This document shows positions 1 to 28,012 of a DNA stretch of 32,000 nt, piece by piece. Under the pieces are notes generated by a model, which worked only from the letters and a program-made list of their open reading frames with translations, ran no database searches and was not told where the DNA came from. Each line of letters opens with the position of its first letter. Position 1 is the stretch's first letter. Made by a program: the position numbers and the translations under genes. The DNA comes from Blochmannia endosymbiont of Camponotus modoc (GTDB lineage Bacteria; Pseudomonadota; Gammaproteobacteria; Enterobacterales; Enterobacteriaceae), in NCBI RefSeq assembly GCF_023585785.1, contig NZ_CP097765.1:570001-602000 (forward strand). The letters run 5' to 3'.

Positions 1-152
1 CTCAATACGGGGTGGAATCAATACGTAAATTCGGAGTATTACGAGGTATCTGGATGACATGTATTCGTATATTGCAATGCCATCCTTTAACTGTAAATAA
101 CAATGAAAATTTTAAATATTATTCACATTCACATATTCAGGACATAATCAAC
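1..152 (+). CDS. yidD: yidD (membrane protein insertion efficiency factor), C-terminal fragment entering the window; it reads in frame into yidC without a stop codon
   Basis: Translation from nt 3 gives QYGVESIRKFGVLRGIWMTCIRILQCHPLTVNNNE.... This matches the conserved C-terminal core of E. coli YidD (..[30 protein letters not shown]..). I read every codon from 3 to 152 and found no stop before the yidC ATG at 153. Confidence 0.6.
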
Positions 153-1808
153 ATGGATTCGCAACGTAATTTCTTTGTGATAGCTTTTTTAATTATGTCG
201 TTTATACTATGGCAAATATGGCAAACAGAGTATCATCAAAGCACTAATATCCCAAAAATAAATATACATGAAAATACATATCCACTAATTCGTTCTGAAG
301 ATAATGATGAAATAAAATATATACATCATAAAAGTCATGTGATTACAGTAAAAACAGATGTGTTGTTACTCAAAATAAATACTTATGGAGGAGATATCGA
401 AGAAGCATATCTCGTGAATTATTTAGAGAATTTACATTCTACAGAACCTTTTCATCTATTAAGTACATCACAAGCATTTACATATCAAACAAACATCGGA
501 CTAATAAACGAAAATATACCGGGTCAATCATATAATAATAAAAAATTTATATACACTACCGCAACTGATAAAAGTATGTACACCATACCAAAAAATGAAG
601 ATAAATTACAATTAACTTTAACACATTACGCTTCCGATGGGATTACATATACTAAGAATTATATTTTTAACAGAAATGACTACTCCATATATGTATTCTA
701 TACCGTAAATAATATGAGCACTTATCCATTAAAAATTAAGTTGTTTGGTAATATAGTACAATCCGAACATTATCCCAAATTACATAATAACAGCGATAAC
801 GGAGATAATTTTCCTTTATACTCTTATCGAGGACCAGCATATTCTACTGATAAAAAAAAATATCAAAAATACAGCTTTAAAGATATAAAAAATATGAATT
901 TAAACATTAATACCTCTAAAGGTTGGATAGCAATGTCACAAAAATATTTTGCGACAGCTTGGATACCCCTTACTCAAGGAAATAATACATTTTATACTAC
1001 CTACCATGATAATAATAGTGCTTCTATAGGTTTTCAATCTGATTCAATATATCTCCCGATAGGAGAAACAGGTAAATTTCAATCTATATTATGGATAGGC
1101 CCAAAAATTCAAGAAAAGATGAAAGCAATAGCTCCAAATTTAGATCTATTAGTTGACTACGGATGGTTGTGGTTTATTTCTCAACCATTGTTTCAATTAT
1201 TGAGTTTTATTTACAGTTACATAGAAAATTGGGGTATATCTATTATTATTATAACATTAATTATACGTCTAACCATGTATCCTTTAACTAAAGCACAATA
1301 TACTTCTATGGCAAAAATACGCATGCTACAACCTAAATTATCTATAATACAAGAAGAATATAAACACGATAAATATCAATACCATCAAAAAACTATAGAA
1401 TTATATAAGTTAGAAAAAGTGAATCCATTGGGGGGATGCCTACCTTTATTAATCCAAATGCCAATATTCTTAGCTTTATATTATATGTTATCAGGTTCTG
1501 TAGAATTAAGGCATGCTGAATTTGCTTTCTGGATTCATGATTTATCTGCTCAGGATCCTTATTACATACTACCGATATTAATGGGAATTACTATGTTTTT
1601 TATACAAAAAATGTCGCCTACTACAATTACTGATGCGATACAGAAAAAAATGATGACTATCATGTTAATCATTTTTACTATATTTTTTTTATGGTTCCCA
1701 TCTGGTTTAGTATTATATTATATAGTAAGCAATATAATCACCATTATTCAACAATACATGATTTATCGAGAACTAGAAAAACAAGGATTACACAATAAAA
1801 ATAACTAA
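153..1808 (+). CDS. yidC: YidC membrane protein insertase
   Basis: The ORF track frame is 12..1808. The internal ATG at 153 gives MDSQRNFFVIAFLIMSFILWQIWQ, colinear with the E. coli YidC N-terminus MDSQRNLLVIALLFVSF. An AGGA lies 10 nt upstream. The conserved C-terminal TM core is present (NPLGGCLPLLIQMPIFLALY, PSGLVLYY). Confidence 0.95.
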   Translation: MDSQRNFFVIAFLIMSFILWQIWQTEYHQSTNIPKINIHENTYPLIRSEDNDEIKYIHHKSHVITVKTDVLLLKINTYGGDIEEAYLVNYLENLHSTEPFHLLSTSQAFTYQTNIGLINENIPGQSYNNKKFIYTTATDKSMYTIPKNEDKLQLTLTHYASDGITYTKNYIFNRNDYSIYVFYTVNNMSTYPLKIKLFGNIVQSEHYPKLHNNSDNGDNFPLYSYRGPAYSTDKKKYQKYSFKDIKNMNLNINTSKGWIAMSQKYFATAWIPLTQGNNTFYTTYHDNNSASIGFQSDSIYLPIGETGKFQSILWIGPKIQEKMKAIAPNLDLLVDYGWLWFISQPLFQLLSFIYSYIENWGISIIIITLIIRLTMYPLTKAQYTSMAKIRMLQPKLSIIQEEYKHDKYQYHQKTIELYKLEKVNPLGGCLPLLIQMPIFLALYYMLSGSVELRHAEFAFWIHDLSAQDPYYILPILMGITMFFIQKMSPTTITDAIQKKMMTIMLIIFTIFFLWFPSGLVLYYIVSNIITIIQQYMIYRELEKQGLHNKNN

Positions 1809-10790: not shown

Positions 10791-11636
<846 letters not shown>

Positions 11637-11661
11637 TTATAAATATTTTACAATGTTCCTG

Positions 11662-11677
11662 TGTAATGTACATTACA
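11662..11677. repeat. 16-bp perfect palindrome TGTAATGTACATTACA in the atpB upstream region
   Basis: I verified it base by base (pairs 11662/11677 through 11669/11670). It lies 59-74 nt upstream of the atpB start codon. Confidence 0.7.
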
Positions 11678-12272
11678 GCCTCGATATACAACTTGTCGCT
11701 AACGTGTCAAATAAGTCCAAAATCATTATTATGCATAACTTACAATGATGTTGTATTCGAGAAGAATAACAGTGCCTGCATCAACTTTAAAAAGTTAGTA
11801 CTAATAGAAAATAATAAGAACACTCCCTCTTTTCACACAATCATATACTAATGCAATAAAAGAGAATTAAAAAATGGCACTATGAATTAATTAGTAAATT
11901 TCACATAATATATTACAACTACAGAAACAAACATACGACTGAACTATAGTTTAATGTAGGAAAATAATTTATCTTATAATTAATAACCACTAATGCAACT
12001 AAAAACTCAGTATAATCCTTTTTTCAAAAAATTCAAAGCGTAAAATTTAGATACATATCAACAACCGTATAATATTAAAACAAATACCATACATAACAAA
12101 CCATTAAAATAGTACAATTACTATTATTATCTCTATATAAAACTGTTATTGGAAAAAACATAAATATACCACAATTTACACGTCCAACTCTCTCCATATA
12201 GTAGCGATCACAAACACCCCATATAGGGATCAAATAATCTTGATTAAATAGAAAAATCCATTATTCTCTAGA

Positions 12273-14171
12273 TTAGAATGTATTGTATCCTAATAAACCT
12301 TGTTTTTTTAACCAAACCAATAAATTAGAAATAGCTGCAGGAGTTATACCGGAAATGCGAGAAGCCTGTCCAATAGAATAAGGTTTATAATTATTAAGTT
12401 TATCGATAACCTCCTTAGATAATCCAGAAACAATATTGAAATCTATATCAGTCGGTAACAATGTATTTTCATTGTAAATATGTCTTTTTATTTCTTCTTG
12501 TTGATGACGAATATAACCTTCATATTTTATTTGAATTTCAATTTGCTCGAATACTTGACGATCCAATACAGATGGACTAAAAGTACTTAGTTGAGATAAC
12601 TTTGTGTAATTAATTTCTGGCCTTCTCAACAGATCTTCACCATTTGCTTCATGTGTTAACGGTGTTTTAAGAAAATTATTTAACTGTGCAACATCTGCAC
12701 TATACGGGGAAATATAAGTGTTACGTAATCTCTGACGTTCTTTTTCAATATTTTCTTTTTTGCAACAAAAAGCTTTCCACCGTGATTCATCTATCAAACC
12801 TAACTGCCGCGCGGTTTCGGTTAATCTTAAATCAGCATTATCCTCACGTAAAGACAGACGATATTCAGCACGCGAAGTAAACATACGATAAGGTTCTTCT
12901 GTTCCATGCGTACAAAGATCATCTACAAGCACCCCTAAATATGCCTGATCTCTTCTAGGATACCATCCTTCTTTATTTTTGGAAAATCTAGCTGCATTAA
13001 TTCCGGCTAATAATCCTTGGGCAGCTGCTTCTTCATAACCAGTAGTACCATTAATTTGACCAGAAAAAAACAATCCAGAAATAATTTTACTCTCTAATGT
13101 TAACTTTAAATCACGAGGATCAAAAAAATCGTATTCAATAGCATAACCCGGCCTAACTATATCAGCATTCTCTAATCCCTGGATTGATTTAATCATTTGC
13201 ATTTGCACACAAAAAGGTAAACTAGTAGAAATACCATTAAGATATACTTCAGGTGTTGTCAAACCTTCAGGTTCTAAAAAAATTTGATGAGCATTACGAT
13301 CTGAGAAACGAGTTATTTTGTCTTCTATAGATGGACAATATCGAGGTGCTATTCCTTTTATTAAACCTGTATACATAGGGCTCTGATGTAAATTTGATCT
13401 AATTATTTCGTGGGTTTTATTATTAGTATGGGTAATATAACAAGGCATCTGCGTAGGATGTAGTTTTGTAGATCCTATAAATGAAAACACAGGAATGGGA
13501 TCATCACTATATTGTGCGCATAAAGAATCAAAATTTATCCCTTTGGTATGCACACGAGGAGAAGTACCCGTTTTTAACCGACTAACTTGCAAAGATAACT
13601 CTTTCAATCGTTCTGATAACAATGACGATGACTCCGAATCTCCAGATCGACCTCCTCTAAAGTTATTCATCCCAATATGAATCTTGCCATTGAGAAAAGT
13701 TCCGGTTGTCAACACTACAGACGTACCACTAAATTTCATTCCTAATTTTGGAGTAATTACTCCAACAATCCTGTTCCTCCTAACTATTAAATCTTCTACT
13801 GATGCCTGAATAACCAACAAAAATTTTTGATATTCAAGAACATTACGTATTGCCCGTCGATATAATATTTTGTCTGCCTGAGCACGTGTTGCTCTAACAG
13901 CAGCTCCTTTGCTACTATTAAGTACTCTAAATTGAATTCCCGATTGATCGATAGCATAAGCCATCGATCCACCCATCGCATCAATTTCTTTCACTAAATG
14001 TCCTTTTCCTATACCACCAACGGCCGGATTACAAGACATCTGTCCAAGAGTATCAATATTATGAGTAATCAAAAGCGTATTGCATTGCATTCTAGCAGAA
14101 GCCAAAGCTGCTTCTGTCCCAGAATGGCCTCCTCCAACAACAATAACATCAAAATGAGTGGGATAGAACAT
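12273..14171 (-). CDS. mnmG: tRNA uridine-5-carboxymethylaminomethyl modification enzyme MnmG (GidA)
   Basis: The FAD-binding N-terminus is [22 protein letters not shown], followed by [29 protein letters not shown] Shine-Dalgarno sequence lies 7 nt before the ATG. Confidence 0.97.
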
Positions 14172-14220
14172 ACATCAACCTCATCACATGACCAACACAA
14201 CTCCAACAAGAACGATCCCT

Positions 14221-14252
14221 AAAATAAAAATAGAAAGAAACTTTTTTGTTTC
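14221..14252 (-). terminator. weak hairpin plus U-rich tract between the GC island and the mnmG Shine-Dalgarno sequence (possible terminator or attenuator)
   Basis: The minus strand reads GAAAC-aaaaaa-GTTTC (14252..14237), followed by TTTCTATTTTTATTTT. The stem is only 5 bp. Confidence 0.2.
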
Positions 14253-14260
14253 AATTTAAT

Positions 14261-14392
14261 TCCACACCGCAACTACCAAACGAGAACCCGTCCACGCTGC
14301 GCAGCCGCGTTCGAAACAAGAACGCCTCGCCAACAACTCTTATGTACTTTGCTACACATATACGTGTATGGTCATGGCCGTTGGCCGAACAT
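14261..14392. other. GC-rich palindrome-dense island of unknown function (candidate structured RNA, mnmG leader or origin element)
   Basis: G+C is 70 of 130 nt over 14261-14390 and 33/50 (66%) over 14281-14330, against very AT-rich flanks. It contains the palindrome GCTGCGCAGC (14296-14305). It also contains three hairpins: GCGTTC-N7-GAACGC (14307-14325), TACAC-N6-GTGTA (14353-14368) and GGCC-gtt-GGCC (14376-14386). Confidence 0.5.
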
Positions 14393-14399
14393 TTTAACA

Positions 14400-14428
14400 A
14401 TTATATTTAAAAAAGTCGAAAAATTCAA
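14400..14428 (-). promoter_or_regulatory. candidate sigma70-type promoter reading toward the GC island and mnmG
   Basis: On the minus strand, TTGAAT (14428..14423) is followed by a 17-nt spacer and then a perfect TATAAT (14405..14400). The predicted start near 14393 is at the right edge of the GC island. Promoter-like hexamers are common in AT-rich DNA, so this call is tentative. Confidence 0.3.
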
Positions 14429-14794
14429 TGAAAAGAATAGATTAAATTATCTGTTTGTTAAAAATAATTTGAAAATAATATTGATTACTGTATGTGATTA
14501 GGATTGTATTATTGAGGATCGTTGTAGTAGTATGTAAAATTTAAAATAAAAATTTGGAAACAAGTTATTATTGTTTATTAATTTTTCTTAATAACTAAAC
14601 CGATGGAAACACTTGAATTAACATTTTAAGTTGTGTTACTATAGAAGATGGGTTCATTTTATTTAGATAGTAAATGCATGTGCGTTTACTATACCATTCC
14701 ATATTAAATAAACAAGTAGTTTTATGATCGGGATTAATATACAGTCATATGTTGTAGTTAAAGATTATGAAAAATTAATAATATTTTATATTAC

Positions 14795-14868
14795 AGGCTT
14801 GTAGCTCAGGCGGTTAGAGCGCACCCCTGATAAGGGTGAGGACGGTGGTTCAATTCCACTCAGGCCTA
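14795..14868 (+). tRNA. tRNA-Ile (anticodon GAU)
   Basis: AGGCTTGTAGCTCAGGCGGTTAGAGCGCACCCCTGATAAGGGTGAGGACGGTGGTTCAATTCCACTCAGGCCTA is nearly identical to E. coli tRNA-Ile(GAU). The cloverleaf arms all pair. The 3' flank is TCA, so CCA is not encoded. Confidence 0.95.
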
Positions 14869-15204
14869 TCATGAATTGTGATGTATGTAATTAATAGATC
14901 ATGAGAAATGTTCACTAGAATTTATATTCTATTTATGTTTGTATCTGCGTATATTTGATAAATCACTATAAACTATGCGTTAACTATGTTAAATATATGA
15001 TTTATAAATTATCCGTGATACTTGGATAGTGATTTTTATTTTTTGTATTTTACTAAATACGTGTTGAAAAAAAATTAATTTTATAATTATGGATTCCATC
15101 TTCATGAAGGATAGTGGGAATTTGTGATATGTATATAGGTAAAATAAACAATCTGAAACTAAATAGATTTAGAAGATACGTATACATATTAAGGTCACGA
15201 CATT

Positions 15205-16098
15205 ATGCCAATTCGGGTATTAAACAAATTGCCTGCGATAAAAATTTTACAGAATGAAGATGTTTTTGTTATGCAAAAATCACGCAATACTTTTAAAGAA
15301 CAAAGTTCTTTAAAAGTATTGATTCTTAATTTAATGCCAAAAAAAATTGAAACGGAAAATCAATTATTACGTTTGTTATCAAATTCTCCCTTACAAATTG
15401 ATATTCAATTATTGCGCATAGATGGTCATGTTCCTAAAAACACACCTGTTGAGCATTTAAACAACTTTTATTGTAGTTTTTTAGATATCCAATATAAAAA
15501 CTTCGATGGTTTGATCGTAACTGGTGCTCCTTTGGGATTAATTAATTTTGAAAATATAACCTTTTGGCCTCAAATTAAGCAATTATTTTTATGGGCACAA
15601 GAGCATATTAATTCGATATTATTTATTTGTTGGGCGGTACAGGCAGCTTTAAAAGTACTATACAATCTTCCTAAATTTACCCGGAAGCATAAATTAGTAG
15701 GAATTTACCAACATAATACTATAAGTTCACATGCACTTTTAACAAAAGGATTTGATGAAAAATTTTTAGCGCCTCACTCTCGTTATTCGGATTTTCCTAA
15801 AGATGTAATTTATCGGAACACAGATTTAGAAATTTTAGCAGAATCTGATGAAGCAGGTGCATATTTGCTTATTAGTCAAGACAAGCGTTTAATATTTATA
15901 ACTGGACATCCAGAATATGACGCGATGACTTTATCTCAGGAGTATTATAGAGATTTAAAATTAGGATTAAATCCGATGCTACCAGATCATTATTTTCCTC
16001 AAGACAATCCTAATTTAGTTCCTAAGATCAGTTGGAGAAGTCATGCGTATTTATTGTTTGCCAATTGGCTGAATCATTATGTACAAAAAATGTCATAA
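15205..16098 (+). CDS. metA: homoserine O-succinyltransferase
   Basis: The N-terminus is [49 protein letters not shown] is almost identical to E. coli MetA. Confidence 0.96.
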
Positions 16099-16592: not shown

Positions 16593-18248
16593 GTGAAAAA
16601 TATAAATCCCATTAGTACACAAGCTTGGCAACACCTCAAACAACATTTTAACGATATGAAGAGCATATCAATTAACGATTTGTTCAATCAAGATAAATAT
16701 AGGTTTGCTCATTTCTCTAAAACATTTAATAATGAAATTTTAGTGGATTATTCAAAAAACTTAATCACGAACGAAACTATTATTAAACTAATATCTTTAG
16801 CTATTGAATGTGATCTGATAGAAGCCATTTCAGATATGTTTCATGGTGAAAAAATTAATCGCAGTGAAGATCGTGCTGCATTGCATATAGCTTTAAGAAA
16901 TATAAAAAATACACCAATTTTAGTAGATGGATCCAACGTAATGCCACAAATAAATGCAGTACTAAATAAAATGAAACAATTTTGTAATCGGGTTATTCAA
17001 GGTAATTGGACAGGTTACACGGATAAAATAATTACAGATATCGTTAATATAGGTATTGGAGGTTCCAATCTTGGGCCTTATATGGTAACTGAAGCATTAA
17101 AACCATATCGAAATCATTTAAATATGCATTTTGTTTCTAATATAGACGGCACGCATATTTTCGAGACATTAAAAAATTTAAATCCAGAAAATACACTATT
17201 TGTAATAGCGTCAAAAACTTTTACTACGCAAGAAACTATGACCAATGCGTTTAGTGCACGTAACTGGTTTTGTAAAGCTACTTCTAATGCACAACATGTG
17301 TCGAAGCATTTTATAGCATTATCCACAAATACCATAGAAGTGCGTAAATTTGGCATTGATCCATCAGAAAATATGTTTAAATTTTGGGATTGGGTAGGAG
17401 GGCGTTATTCATTGTGGTCATCAATTGGTTTACCGATAATGCTATCGGTGGGAGTAAGCAATTTTGAACTATTGCTAACTGGAGCTCATGACATGGATAT
17501 GCATTTTCATAATACACCGTTACATGAAAATCTACCAGTAATTCTAGCGCTGATTGGCATTTGGTACAATAATTTCTTTCAAGTAGAAACTGAAGCCATT
17601 TTTCCTTATGATCAATATATGCACCGTTTTACAGCATATTTACAACAAGTAAATATGGAATCTAACGGAAAATGTGTAGATCGCAATGGATGCCCTATTA
17701 TATATCAGACTGGTCCTATTATATGGGGAGAACCTGGAACTAATGGACAACATTCATTTTATCAATTGCTTCATCAAGGTACTAAAATGGTCCCATGTGA
17801 TTTTATCGCACCAGCAATTAGTCATAATCCTATGTCTGATCATCATGAAAAATTAATATCAAATTTTTTTGCTCAAACTAAAGCCTTGGCTTTTGGAAAT
17901 ACACGTTCAACAGAAATGCAAAAATATGTAAAATTTAAAAAAAATTACAAATATGAACAATGTGTGGTTCCTTTTAAGTTATGTAAAGGAAATAATCCTA
18001 GTAATTCTATTTTAGTCAAAAAAATTACTCCTTATACTTTAGGGGCTTTGATTGCTTTATATGAACATAAAATATTTACGCAAGGTATTATTTTCAATAT
18101 TTATACTTTTGATCAATGGGGGGTGGAATTAGGAAAACAATTGGCTGACAGTATTTTACCAGAATTAAAATATGAAAATATGATTTCTAAAAATCATGAC
18201 AGTTCAACTTATGGTTTAATAGATTGTTACAAATCTTGGCGTAGTTAA
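16593..18248 (+). CDS. pgi: glucose-6-phosphate isomerase
   Basis: A GTG start gives [12 protein letters not shown], matching E. coli MKNINPTQTAAW. The conserved blocks [29 protein letters not shown] and [14 protein letters not shown] are present. Confidence 0.96.
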
Positions 18249-25574: not shown

Positions 25575-27143
25575 ATGAATATATTTTATGACAGAGAATA
25601 TATGCCAATTACCTTATTTTATTTATATAGCATAATTAGCATATTTGCAGGTTTCTTAATATCTGGAATATTTTTTAAGATTATAAGAAAACGATATATT
25701 ACAAAATATAATCATGCTTATGCATCTCATGAGAATGCTTTATGTGTAATTACACAAAATTTAAAAAATGAATCTGACTTACGTTATAATATTGAACAGA
25801 AATTGCAAAAAAAATCACAAGTGATATATGAACTACATGGTAAATTATCCACTGCCGAAGAGCGTTTAAAATTATTAAATCATTATCATCAAAAATGTGA
25901 AAAACTAAATAATGAATTACATGTACAATTAAATTTAAATCATTCTCAAGAATTAAAAATACAAGAATTAAATATTCGTTTAGAAGAATATAAATTAGCA
26001 ACAGAAGAAAAACAGAAGTTGTTTATCAATAGTGAAAACCGATTAACTATGCAATTTGAAAATTTGGCAAATCGTATTTTTGAGCAAAACGGACGCAAGA
26101 TAGATCAACAAAATCGAATAACTCTTGAGAGAACGTTATATCCATTAAAAGAACAGTTAGAAGGATTTAAAAGTCAAATCCAAAACAATTTCTCAAAAGA
26201 AGAGCAATCGAGACATACCCTGACATATGAAATTCGTAATTTACATCAATTGAATGCAAAAATCACTCAAGAAACTATTAATTTAACACAAGCATTAAAA
26301 GGAAACAATAAAACACAAGGCAGTTGGGGAGAAATAATTTTAACTCGTGCATTAGAAGCTTCTGGTATGCGTGAAGGTCATGAATTTCATGTACAAGTCA
26401 GCATAAAACAAACTGATGGAAATAGATTGCAACCTGATGTAATTATACATTTACCTCATGGTAAAGATGTAATAATTGATTCTAAAGTATCTCTAGTGGC
26501 TTATGAACGTTATTTCAATAGCGATAGCGAAGAAGATCAACGGTTAGCTGTCATTGATCACGTACATTCATTGCGTGCTCATATAAAATCATTAAGCAAA
26601 AAAGATTATCAAAAATTATTTGGATTAAACACATTAGATTATATTTTAATGTTTGTCCCTATTGAATCAGCTTTTATGTTAGCCATTAAAAAAGAAGCAT
26701 CATTATTAACAGATGCTATGCGGTGTAATATTATGTTAATTAGCCCTACAACACTGTTAATAGCTTTGCGCACTATTAATAACTTATGGCGTTATGAATA
26801 TCAAAATTGCCATGCTAAAAAAATTGCTGATAAAGCAGGAAGATTGTATGACAAACTACGGTTGTTTATGGATGACTTAAATAAAATTGGCCTTTATCTA
26901 AATAAAGCAGAAGTTATTTATAATGCAGCAAAGAATAAATTTTCTGAAGGAAAAGGTAATATTATAAGTCAAGCGGAAGGTTTTCGAGCACTTGGAGTGC
27001 AAATAAAACAACCAATTGTTACTAATGTGATTCCACCGAATTCTATATTTTTATGTGATACAAAAAAAAATTCTTCTGATGTATCTAATTTTGAAGATAA
27101 CATCACTGAAAATATATGTCATAAATCTTTATCAAATTCTTGA
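25575..27143 (+). CDS. rmuC: DNA recombination protein RmuC
   Basis: [69 protein letters not shown] and [20 protein letters not shown] match E. coli RmuC. An alternative start exists at the ATG at 25602. Confidence 0.92.
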
Positions 27144-27244
27144 TTTGGTACATTAAAGTATGTGACTTGATAAAATCATATAGTACTATTTTAGTAAAAT
27201 TAGTATTTTTGATAAATAGAAATTTAATGATAAAGATTACGGTA

Positions 27245-28012
27245 ATGATGAATATGAAGAATAAATCTAAAAAAGAAATGACTCATTTTGGTTTTCAAAA
27301 TGTTTACAAGGATAAGAAAACATCATTAGTGTCTAATATATTCCATTCTGTAGCATCACAATATGATTTAATGAATGATTTAATGTCATTTGGAATACAT
27401 AGAATGTGGAAACAATTTATGATTTATCGCAGCGAAGTATACGTCGGATGCACTGTATTGGATCTAGCCGGAGGTACTGGAGATTTAAGTATTCAATTTT
27501 CCCGGTTAGTAGGTAATACAGGGATCGTAGTACTAGCAGATATCAATGATTCCATGCTACATATAGGACAAAAAAAATTACGCAATTTAGGTATATTAAA
27601 TAATGTAATATATATACAAGCTGATGCTGAAGCTTTACCTTTCTCTGAAAATACTTTTGATTGCGTTGCTGTTTCTTTTGGATTACGCAATTTTACAAAT
27701 AAAGAACAAGCATTATTTTCAATGCATAGAGTATTAAAACCTAGAGGAAAATTATTAATCTTAGATTTCGGGGTGCCTACTTTTAAAGTATTGCATAAGA
27801 TATATGATTTATATTCATTTCATATTTTACCTAAAATAGGTAAATGTATAACTCAAGATATTAATAGTTATCGTTATCTTGTAGAATCTATTCGTATGCA
27901 TCCAGATCAAGAAACTTTAAAAAACATGATAATACGAACAGGATTCAACAATGTTGAATATTTCAATATGACTTTTGGGATTGCTGTATTACATTGCGCT
28001 TATAAATGTTAA
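27245..28012 (+). CDS. ubiE: ubiquinone/menaquinone C-methyltransferase UbiE
   Basis: [69 protein letters not shown] matches E. coli UbiE. The start is uncertain among the ATGs at 27245, 27248 and 27254. 27254 gives the length closest to E. coli. Confidence 0.92.

Follow-up and report, generated by a model that had tools for sequence, protein, structure and literature searches.

We analysed a 32,000-nucleotide stretch of DNA (the window; contig NZ_CP097765.1, positions 570,001 to 602,000), in which a 623-bp spacer at window positions 14172-14794 separates mnmG from a tRNA-Ile gene. It is hardly in doubt that this locus is the mnmG–tRNA-Ile intergenic region of the Blochmannia endosymbiont of Camponotus modoc, as five window proteins are exact matches among the entries URJ26176-URJ26196 of this symbiont (790,674-bp genome). 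With a probability of about 0.6, we propose that the spacer is a DnaA-independent, mnmG-adjacent replication origin and the orthologue of the site that has been drawn as the putative origin of B. pennsylvanicus since the publication of that genome. The finding is real but already known: a skew shift at mnmG, the lack of dnaA and the lack of DnaA boxes were published for B. pennsylvanicus between 2005 and 2015.

The base composition of the plus strand switches within the spacer. Positions 14172-14260 contain 21 C and 6 G, and positions 14401-14640 contain 34 G and 14 C; both counts behind the claim of the first-pass annotation that composition flips here from C>G to G>C were reproduced exactly. 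A cumulative G-C walk through the window reached its global minimum at 14363 and stayed within 3 units of it from 14339 to 14429. When 500-bp blocks of the window were re-ordered 10,000 times, a minimum as deep was observed in 0 of 10,000 permutations. A second C. modoc strain (CP097758.1, the sister strain, with ~99% identity over spacer and flanks) likewise had its minimum at the spacer, in a 50-kb composite that extends from ~22 kb left to ~28 kb right of it. The left arm of this composite fell at ~-52 G-C per kb over 22 kb, plus-strand genes included. Intergenic skew in the window was negative in all five regions on the left and positive in 8 of the 10 on the right. The third-codon-position GC skew (GC3 skew) of mnmG, read on the plus strand, was -0.37, and yidC and mnmE, which lie on the plus strand at the far left, nevertheless had negative skew. 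Judged by mutational strand bias, the two replication arms join within the spacer, at ~14340-14430, and we regard it as fairly probable that forks diverge at the spacer or very near it in the modoc lineage.

The gene-strand switch falls exactly where the skew switches. To the left of the spacer, glmU, atpCDGAHFEB and mnmG are on the minus strand; to the right, tRNA-Ile-GAU, metA, pgi, ftsY, rpoH, metE, udp, rmuC, ubiE, ubiB and ubiD are on the plus strand. Hence the earlier description of minus-strand genes on the left and almost exclusively plus-strand genes on the right holds, with rsmD, between pgi and ftsY, as the sole minus-strand gene on the right side. The orthologous region was compared in seven further Blochmannia genomes, including CP097758.1 and B. 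pennsylvanicus CP095401.1. The order and orientation mnmG(-), tRNA-Ile(+), metA(+), pgi(+), rsmD(-) are common to all eight genomes including the window. The GC3 skews of metA and pgi, however, differed: +0.31 and +0.20 in modoc (window), +0.32 and +0.18 in B. pennsylvanicus, +0.02 and +0.03 in the symbiont of C. laevissimus (sample C-003; CP097752.1), -0.02 and -0.01 in B. vicinus, -0.05 and -0.27 in B. ocreatus, -0.38 and -0.22 in B. vafer, and -0.52 and -0.23 in B. floridanus. Intergenic skews tracked this series, and the tRNA-Ile–metA spacer had a skew of -0.27 to -0.43 in B. floridanus and B. vafer. A flip at the spacer was found in modoc and B. pennsylvanicus only and was absent in B. 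floridanus, B. vafer and B. ocreatus. As relatives with identical gene orientation show opposite skew, the flip in the window is not an artefact of transcription or orientation. Neighbour-joining trees of MnmG and Pgi formed a ladder of floridanus/vafer, ocreatus, vicinus, laevissimus and then pennsylvanicus plus modoc, and the skew of the zone to the right of the spacer changed monotonically along it.

These results agree with published whole-genome work, in which skew puts the origin beside mnmG in most species (PMC4389277). The skew shift of B. pennsylvanicus adjoins mnmG (PMC3268670, PMC3017870, PMC4389277), and in B. vafer and B. floridanus it is placed ~31.5 kb upstream of that gene, between yibN and hldD; DnaA boxes have been found at neither site (PMC3017870, PMC3268670). 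Together, the skew minimum in the window and in the composite, the lack of a flip in relatives and the published B. pennsylvanicus skew support the proposal of the first-pass annotation that the spacer is the origin.

DnaA boxes are lacking in the spacer. Between mnmG and metA (14172-15204) we detected neither the DnaA box TTATCCACA within 1 mismatch nor any match to TTWTNCACA, in line with the previous impression that no 9-mer close to the consensus is present. Box-like 9-mers with 2 mismatches were depleted, not enriched, with one in the 623-bp spacer against a window mean of 5.3 per kb. The sole perfect TTATCCACA of the 32-kb window, at 17319-17327 inside the pgi coding region, is presumably a chance occurrence. 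The 50-kb sister-strain composite contained no DnaA-box cluster, with at most two boxes in any 500-bp stretch. A published TTWTNCACA search of the mnmG flanks gave one match in B. pennsylvanicus, which is located in the atpB–mnmG gap, not in the spacer. GATC sites were found at 14214, 14517 and 14726 only (4.8 per kb vs 2.9 per kb window-wide), so the three unclustered sites noted before were recovered.

The initiator gene itself also appears to be missing. In CP097758.1 the canonical neighbourhood consists of gyrB(-), dnaN(-), a 289-bp gap, rpmH(+), rnpA(+), yidD-yidC(+) and mnmE(+), and neither dnaA nor recF was found in its gyrB-dnaN-rpmH part, where the gaps measure 309 and 289 bp. This stretch lies ~2.6-4.4 kb left of the window start, and skew is constant across its divergent junction. 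dnaA has been reported missing from all Camponotus Blochmannia; B. turneri has an intact copy (PMC4389277). The empty dnaN–rpmH gap and this report concur with the earlier statement that Blochmannia is reported to lack dnaA and, combined with the lack of a box cluster over 50 kb, support the suggestion made then of DnaA-independent firing. We therefore infer that initiation at the spacer proceeds without DnaA. Common back-up routes are affected as well: recA was lost ancestrally in Blochmannia (PMC4389277), B. floridanus is listed as lacking priA, dnaT, recA, topA and fis (PMC2671203), and Wu et al. (2006) ruled out priA/recA-based alternatives for dnaA-less symbionts (PMC1472245). Given these losses of recA, priA and dnaT, the constitutive and inducible stable DNA replication routes of E. 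coli (cSDR and iSDR) would be unavailable if the modoc genome resembles that of B. floridanus.

Apart from the tRNA, a seven-genome alignment with a conservation profile revealed only two conserved islands in the spacer. Island 1 (14388-14440) has 0.98 identity to B. pennsylvanicus, the highest conservation in the spacer, and includes a predicted leftward promoter of mnmG (Table 1). This promoter is recognisable in C-003, B. vicinus and B. ocreatus and weaker in B. vafer and B. floridanus; its predicted transcription start (near 14393) falls at the skew minimum. Island 2 (14602-14642) forms the second conservation peak, and its predicted promoter faces tRNA-Ile and metA. The latter scored only 8/12 in a simple scan, below the threshold, and is proposed from conservation: six of seven genomes retain CTTGAAT-N18-TAnnAT together with the TG upstream, with TGCTATAAT in B. 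ocreatus. The conserved content of the spacer thus comprises two divergent promoter-like islands bracketing a core of ~180 bp with 80% A+T.

Several observations weigh against a DnaA-independent origin at the spacer. The right arm is weak, with ~40% of the left-arm slope (+21 vs -54 G-C per kb), and in the sister-strain composite it rises at ~+20/kb for 17 kb and is then flat or slightly negative over polA, engB, glnA and gmk. The GC3 skew of the minus-strand rsmD is negative, which indicates a coding-strand component and a zone that is maybe not purely replicated rightwards. The flip point lies at the predicted transcription start of mnmG, where its leader begins, and a bias linked to transcription of the leader could make the flip sharper or displace it. 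Both promoters persist, albeit weaker, in genomes with the skew shift elsewhere, so promoters alone are not origin determinants. The core is ordinary: its identity to B. pennsylvanicus over 14441-14600 is 0.89, compared to 0.86-0.93 in other spacers and ~0.90 at third codon positions, and in a nearest-neighbour calculation at least 12 other intergenic stretches of the window were equally or less stable. A special unwinding element in the core was rejected, given this ordinary stability profile. Finally, the spacer is called an origin by skew only, and skew is a historical record, not present firing. A count of polarised C>T versus G>A changes, meant to gauge the present mutational asymmetry and replication direction, had no power: with C-003 and B. 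vicinus as outgroups, polarisation was clearly biased, with an excess of apparent AT>GC changes, and the two modoc strains, with B. pennsylvanicus as outgroup, yielded only 19 and 18 differences (p = 0.22).

The weak and fading right arm suggests either a recently moved origin or the shared use of two sites. It is possible that the origin moved at different times in each lineage and that composition is still re-equilibrating; it is also possible that forks from both ends replicate the zone from mnmG to yibN–hldD, each end contributing a share that varies with lineage. In its full form, the second explanation holds that two origins or a diffuse initiation zone replicate these ~30-40 kb from either end, with shares that are lineage-specific and evolving, and that the mnmG spacer is merely the more-used end in modoc and B. 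pennsylvanicus. We consider this unlikely, albeit the most serious competitor. The right-arm slope reaches zero by ~+17 kb. The mean GC3 skew of the zone genes is ~+0.1 in modoc and ~-0.05 in C-003, and the intergenic regions of the zone vary in the sign of their skew in modoc, with 10 of 11 negative in C-003. Furthermore, metA and pgi grade from positive through zero to strongly negative along the ladder-like tree, and an alternative site 31.5 kb upstream of mnmG has been published (PMC3268670). However, a single recent relocation followed by slow compositional re-equilibration yields the same intermediate values, and the published B. pennsylvanicus plots describe one shift, near mnmG. The sister-strain composite stops ~27.8 kb right of the spacer, short of yibN–hldD.

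Less probable still is that replication starts at another site, such as the yibN–hldD spacer used as the putative origin of B. floridanus and B. vafer, and that divergent transcription and gene orientation cause the flip at the mnmG spacer. The exact coincidence of gene-strand and skew switches, the negative GC3 skew of rsmD and the weak right arm would all fit. This explanation is opposed by B. floridanus, B. vafer and B. ocreatus, which share the gene orientation but have no flip at the spacer, and by yidC and mnmE, which keep their negative skew despite their plus-strand position on the left. In addition, intergenic regions that look untranscribed also change sign, and the published whole-genome skew of the sister species puts the shift at mnmG (PMC3268670, PMC4389277).

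Across the genus, the position of the origin looks labile. A bolder and equally improbable version of this idea is that the origin of dnaA-less Blochmannia is not fixed by sequence at all, and is instead an opportunistic, transcription-dependent, quantitative trait that drifts within the 30-40 kb mnmG–yibN–hldD zone, its arrival at mnmG coinciding with the emergence of a G-rich, R-loop-prone leader block. If so, the graded skew would reflect a gradual hand-over or shared use between the two ends, and the ladder-like tree would suggest that the mnmG-adjacent position in pennsylvanicus/modoc is derived or regained rather than simply ancestral.

Returning to a DnaA-independent origin at the spacer, the AT-rich core is the most plausible site of strand opening. 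As a mechanism we tentatively put forward transcription-assisted opening, although we would sooner expect this particular scheme to be wrong than right. Through the twin-domain effect, divergent transcription from the mnmG and tRNA-Ile promoters would make the core negatively supercoiled. An RNA-DNA hybrid may in addition form in the G-rich leader when mnmG is transcribed. Either the supercoiling or the hybrid could expose single-stranded DNA, onto which DnaC might load DnaB directly. DNA polymerase I (Pol I) would be available, as polA, with a 5'-3' exonuclease domain, is encoded 20 kb right of the spacer in the sister strain. An origin that needs little specific sequence can drift in position, which would explain its mobility within the genus. 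Host control of initiation has also been proposed (Gil et al. 2003, as attributed in PMC4389277) and is compatible with any of the readings discussed here.

The C-rich left half of the spacer (14172-14387) is probably the transcribed leader of mnmG. Its proximal part (14172-14259) has 0.73 identity to B. pennsylvanicus; the distal block has 0.69, compared to 0.86-0.93 in other intergenic regions. The block is present in modoc and B. pennsylvanicus only and is AT-rich or deleted in C-003 and more distant relatives. Even between the two C. modoc strains, the 128 bp of the block show 6 substitutions and two indels (1 bp and 6 bp), whereas the flanking 5-6 kb differ by 0.3-0.4% (the sister-strain counterpart is CP097758.1 stretch L081 9057-9180). 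Several candidate identities were rejected. A non-coding RNA was not supported, as an Rfam search of 14100-15250 with gathering and permissive thresholds returned tRNA-Ile only, other matches having E > 1.5 and belonging to eukaryotic or irrelevant families. Nor was an oriC/mioC relic found: when the spacer was compared by blastn-short and six-frame tblastn with the 10 kb that precede mnmG in free-living relatives (loci of at least 12 kb), no hit was better than E = 1. The four small open reading frames of the block had no Pfam match at E <= 10, which speaks against a protein relic. An 82-amino-acid gene called over the block in CP097758.1 (L081 9048-9296; window 14246-14410) has a broken frame in the window, where 54 amino acids are left, and this call is most likely spurious, prompted by local GC-richness. 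A structured leader RNA was not supported either, with a non-significant fold z-score of -1.4. Being clade-specific and fast-evolving, with no match to a family or to oriC and no fold, the block is not a conserved origin element; it is probably a clade-specific, poorly constrained leader of mnmG. A GC-rich, apparently unconstrained segment is expected to be short-lived in a 29% GC genome.

One could nonetheless assign the block a role in an R-loop-primed origin of the ColE1/mitochondrial type, in which a persistent hybrid of the G-rich mnmG leader RNA (complement of 14260-14393), located directly downstream of the mnmG promoter, would prime leftward synthesis by Pol I, and the clade-specific block would have brought the origin to the spacer. 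We judge this to be very unlikely. In its support, the block has 51% GC in a spacer of otherwise ~20% GC and is G-rich on the RNA-like strand (RNA-strand skew +0.26); it begins at the predicted transcription start and skew minimum, is restricted to the clade with the flip at the spacer, and polA is present (sister strain). Its combination of high GC content with evolution faster than that of neutral yardsticks could reflect a constraint that acts on composition and not on sequence, but fast evolution is equally expected of an unconstrained relic. Moreover, the G content is only 32% with one GGG run, no significant RNA structure was detected, and the co-occurrence of block and flip in one clade amounts to one evolutionary event. 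With priA reported absent from a representative of the genus (PMC2671203), a ColE1-style primosome step would have no known loader.

Two further motifs had been singled out by eye. The tandem 11/12-mer pair and the 8-bp hairpin of the first-pass annotation are present where it placed them, but their origin-like significance did not stand. The tandem pair reached only ~p = 0.09 against Markov simulations and is not kept as a repeat in C-003 or more distant relatives. Of random sequences composed like 14396-14794, 33% are expected to contain a perfect 8-bp hairpin; one arm has already changed in the sister strain, and the hairpin is not conserved in C-003 or beyond. Both were rejected as origin elements, being at chance level and unconserved.

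Finally, a conventional DnaA-dependent oriC whose boxes and initiator have diverged beyond recognition is close to refuted, despite the classical gamma-proteobacterial position beside mnmG and the intact dnaA of B. turneri (PMC4389277), as dnaA is missing between dnaN and rpmH of the sister strain and reportedly from all Camponotus Blochmannia (PMC4389277), box-like 9-mers are depleted in the spacer, and the oriC and mioC regions of more than 50 Enterobacterales showed no resemblance to it.

Table 1 Features of the mnmG–metA region (window coordinates; a point in the strand column marks features without strand)
Feature	Coordinates	Strand	Basis or property
mnmG (gidA), left boundary gene	12273..14171	-	TIGR00136, E = 5e-274; product identical to URJ26186.1
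Proximal mnmG 5' leader with GAGG Shine-Dalgarno, C-rich on + strand	14172..14259	-	21 C, 6 G in 14172-14260
C-rich block of ~51% GC, probable distal mnmG leader	14260..14387	-	GC 0.515, skew -0.26 over 14260-14395
Skew switch point, flat floor of cumulative G-C walk	14339..14429	.	minimum 14363; slopes -53.5/kb left, +21.1/kb right
Predicted sigma-70 mnmG promoter: TTGAAT, 17-nt spacer, TATAAT	14400..14428	-	10/12 consensus positions, promoter scan
AT-rich core between divergent promoters	14429..14612	.	GC 0.20
Tandem AT-rich 11/12-mer pair AAAATAATTTG/AAAATAATATTG	14461..14484	.	Tandem Repeats Finder (TRF) score 41, 2.1 copies
Predicted rightward sigma-70 promoter, extended -10: TTGAAT (14613-14618), 18-nt spacer, TACTAT (14637-14642), TGt before	14613..14642	+	conservation
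Hairpin with 8-bp stem, ATAGTAAA-N10-TTTACTAT	14667..14692	.	sequence
tRNA-Ile (GAU)	14795..14868	+	ARAGORN; Rfam 66.8 bits
tRNA-Ile to metA spacer, G>C on + strand	14869..15204	.	GC 0.24, skew +0.28
metA, right boundary gene	15205..16098	+	TIGR01001, E = 3e-147

The surrounding genes offered some additional observations. The G+C content of the window is 28-35%, and the position of tRNA-Ile is unchanged in all seven relatives examined. Between atpB and mnmG lies a 669-bp non-coding gap (window 11604-12272), which is the site of rsmG (gidB) and atpI in free-living Enterobacterales; a relic of either gene was rejected, as tblastn with Enterobacterales proteins encoded downstream of mnmG gave a best E of 0.17. 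The yidC frame (window 12-1808) has ~47 additional N-terminal residues and extends past the window start, and the corresponding product of the sister strain is a 639-amino-acid YidD-YidC fusion (PF01809 plus YidC domains), a fusion likewise reported in Camponotus Blochmannia (PMC4389277). The 5' end of metA (window 15290-15316) contains nested perfect inverted repeats, namely a palindrome of ~12 bp per arm with a 3-nt loop. The listed TTG start of the ubiE frame (window 27140-28012; 290 amino acids) lies within the end of rmuC, and residue 42 is the first to align with the family profile; with the sister-strain gene called at 254 amino acids, the true start is probably ~36-40 codons downstream of the listed TTG. 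The C. modoc symbiont assemblies originate from Manthey et al. 2022 (PMC9251289), where dnaA, skew and origins are not mentioned.

Blochmannia is among the clearest cases in which to ask how a chromosome replicates without DnaA, RecA and PriA. The present analysis adds the base-level anatomy of the spacer, in which an ordinary AT-rich core lies between two predicted divergent promoters, next to a leader that is clade-specific and evolves fast, and it shows that the origin-like motifs picked out by eye are noise. It further adds a natural control, in which the same gene order goes with different skew, and intermediate skew states in the 2022 Camponotus symbiont genomes. With these genomes and public read sets, marker-frequency analysis could directly test where the origin of a DnaA-less bacterium lies and how it is used.

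Compared to the E. coli oriC (gidA/mnmG–mioC), the spacer likewise lies immediately upstream of mnmG, at the GC-skew minimum and with a predicted leftward mnmG promoter at its edge. In E. coli, transcription from the gidA promoter stimulates oriC, which contains 11 GATC sites in 245 bp. The spacer, in contrast, has neither DnaA boxes (R1-R4 and others) nor a GATC cluster (3 sites in 623 bp), and instead of recognisable 13-mer unwinding repeats there are only tandem repeats of 2-3 copies at chance level. It shows no sequence similarity to oriC, tRNA-Ile and metA replace mioC-asnC, mioC being absent, and no DnaA protein would be available. With E. coli cSDR (oriK), iSDR and the RNA II priming of ColE1, the proposed mechanism would share DnaA-less initiation, transcription or R-loops, and Pol I, as an analogy only. 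cSDR and iSDR require RecA and PriA, and ColE1 requires PriA or DnaA for helicase loading. In Blochmannia, however, recA was lost ancestrally, and B. floridanus reportedly also lacks priA and dnaT (PMC4389277, PMC2671203, PMC1472245).

Loss of the initiator, with an origin deduced from skew if at all, also characterises Wigglesworthia, Baumannia, Carsonella, Sulcia, Blattabacterium and DnaA-independent cyanobacteria (PMC4389277, PMC1472245, PMC7198777). These represent different lineages and loci, and some, such as Baumannia, are nearly skewless whereas Blochmannia is strongly skewed. Within the genus, the relocated putative yibN–hldD origin of B. vafer and B. floridanus is similarly dnaA-less, defined by skew only and devoid of DnaA boxes, but it occupies a different locus, and the mnmG spacer of these species keeps tRNA-Ile and weaker promoters without a flip. 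The closest counterpart is the putative B. pennsylvanicus origin, assigned by GC skew (PMC3017870, PMC3268670, PMC4389277). Host species and strain differ and the leader block has diverged by 31% with several indels, but nothing is different in kind: both spacers are without TTWTNCACA or near-consensus boxes, dnaA is reported missing from both symbionts, and gene order, the sign pattern of GC3 skew and synteny are conserved. Both putative origins reside in the same orthologous spacer, with ~80% identity overall and 98% over the mnmG promoter island.

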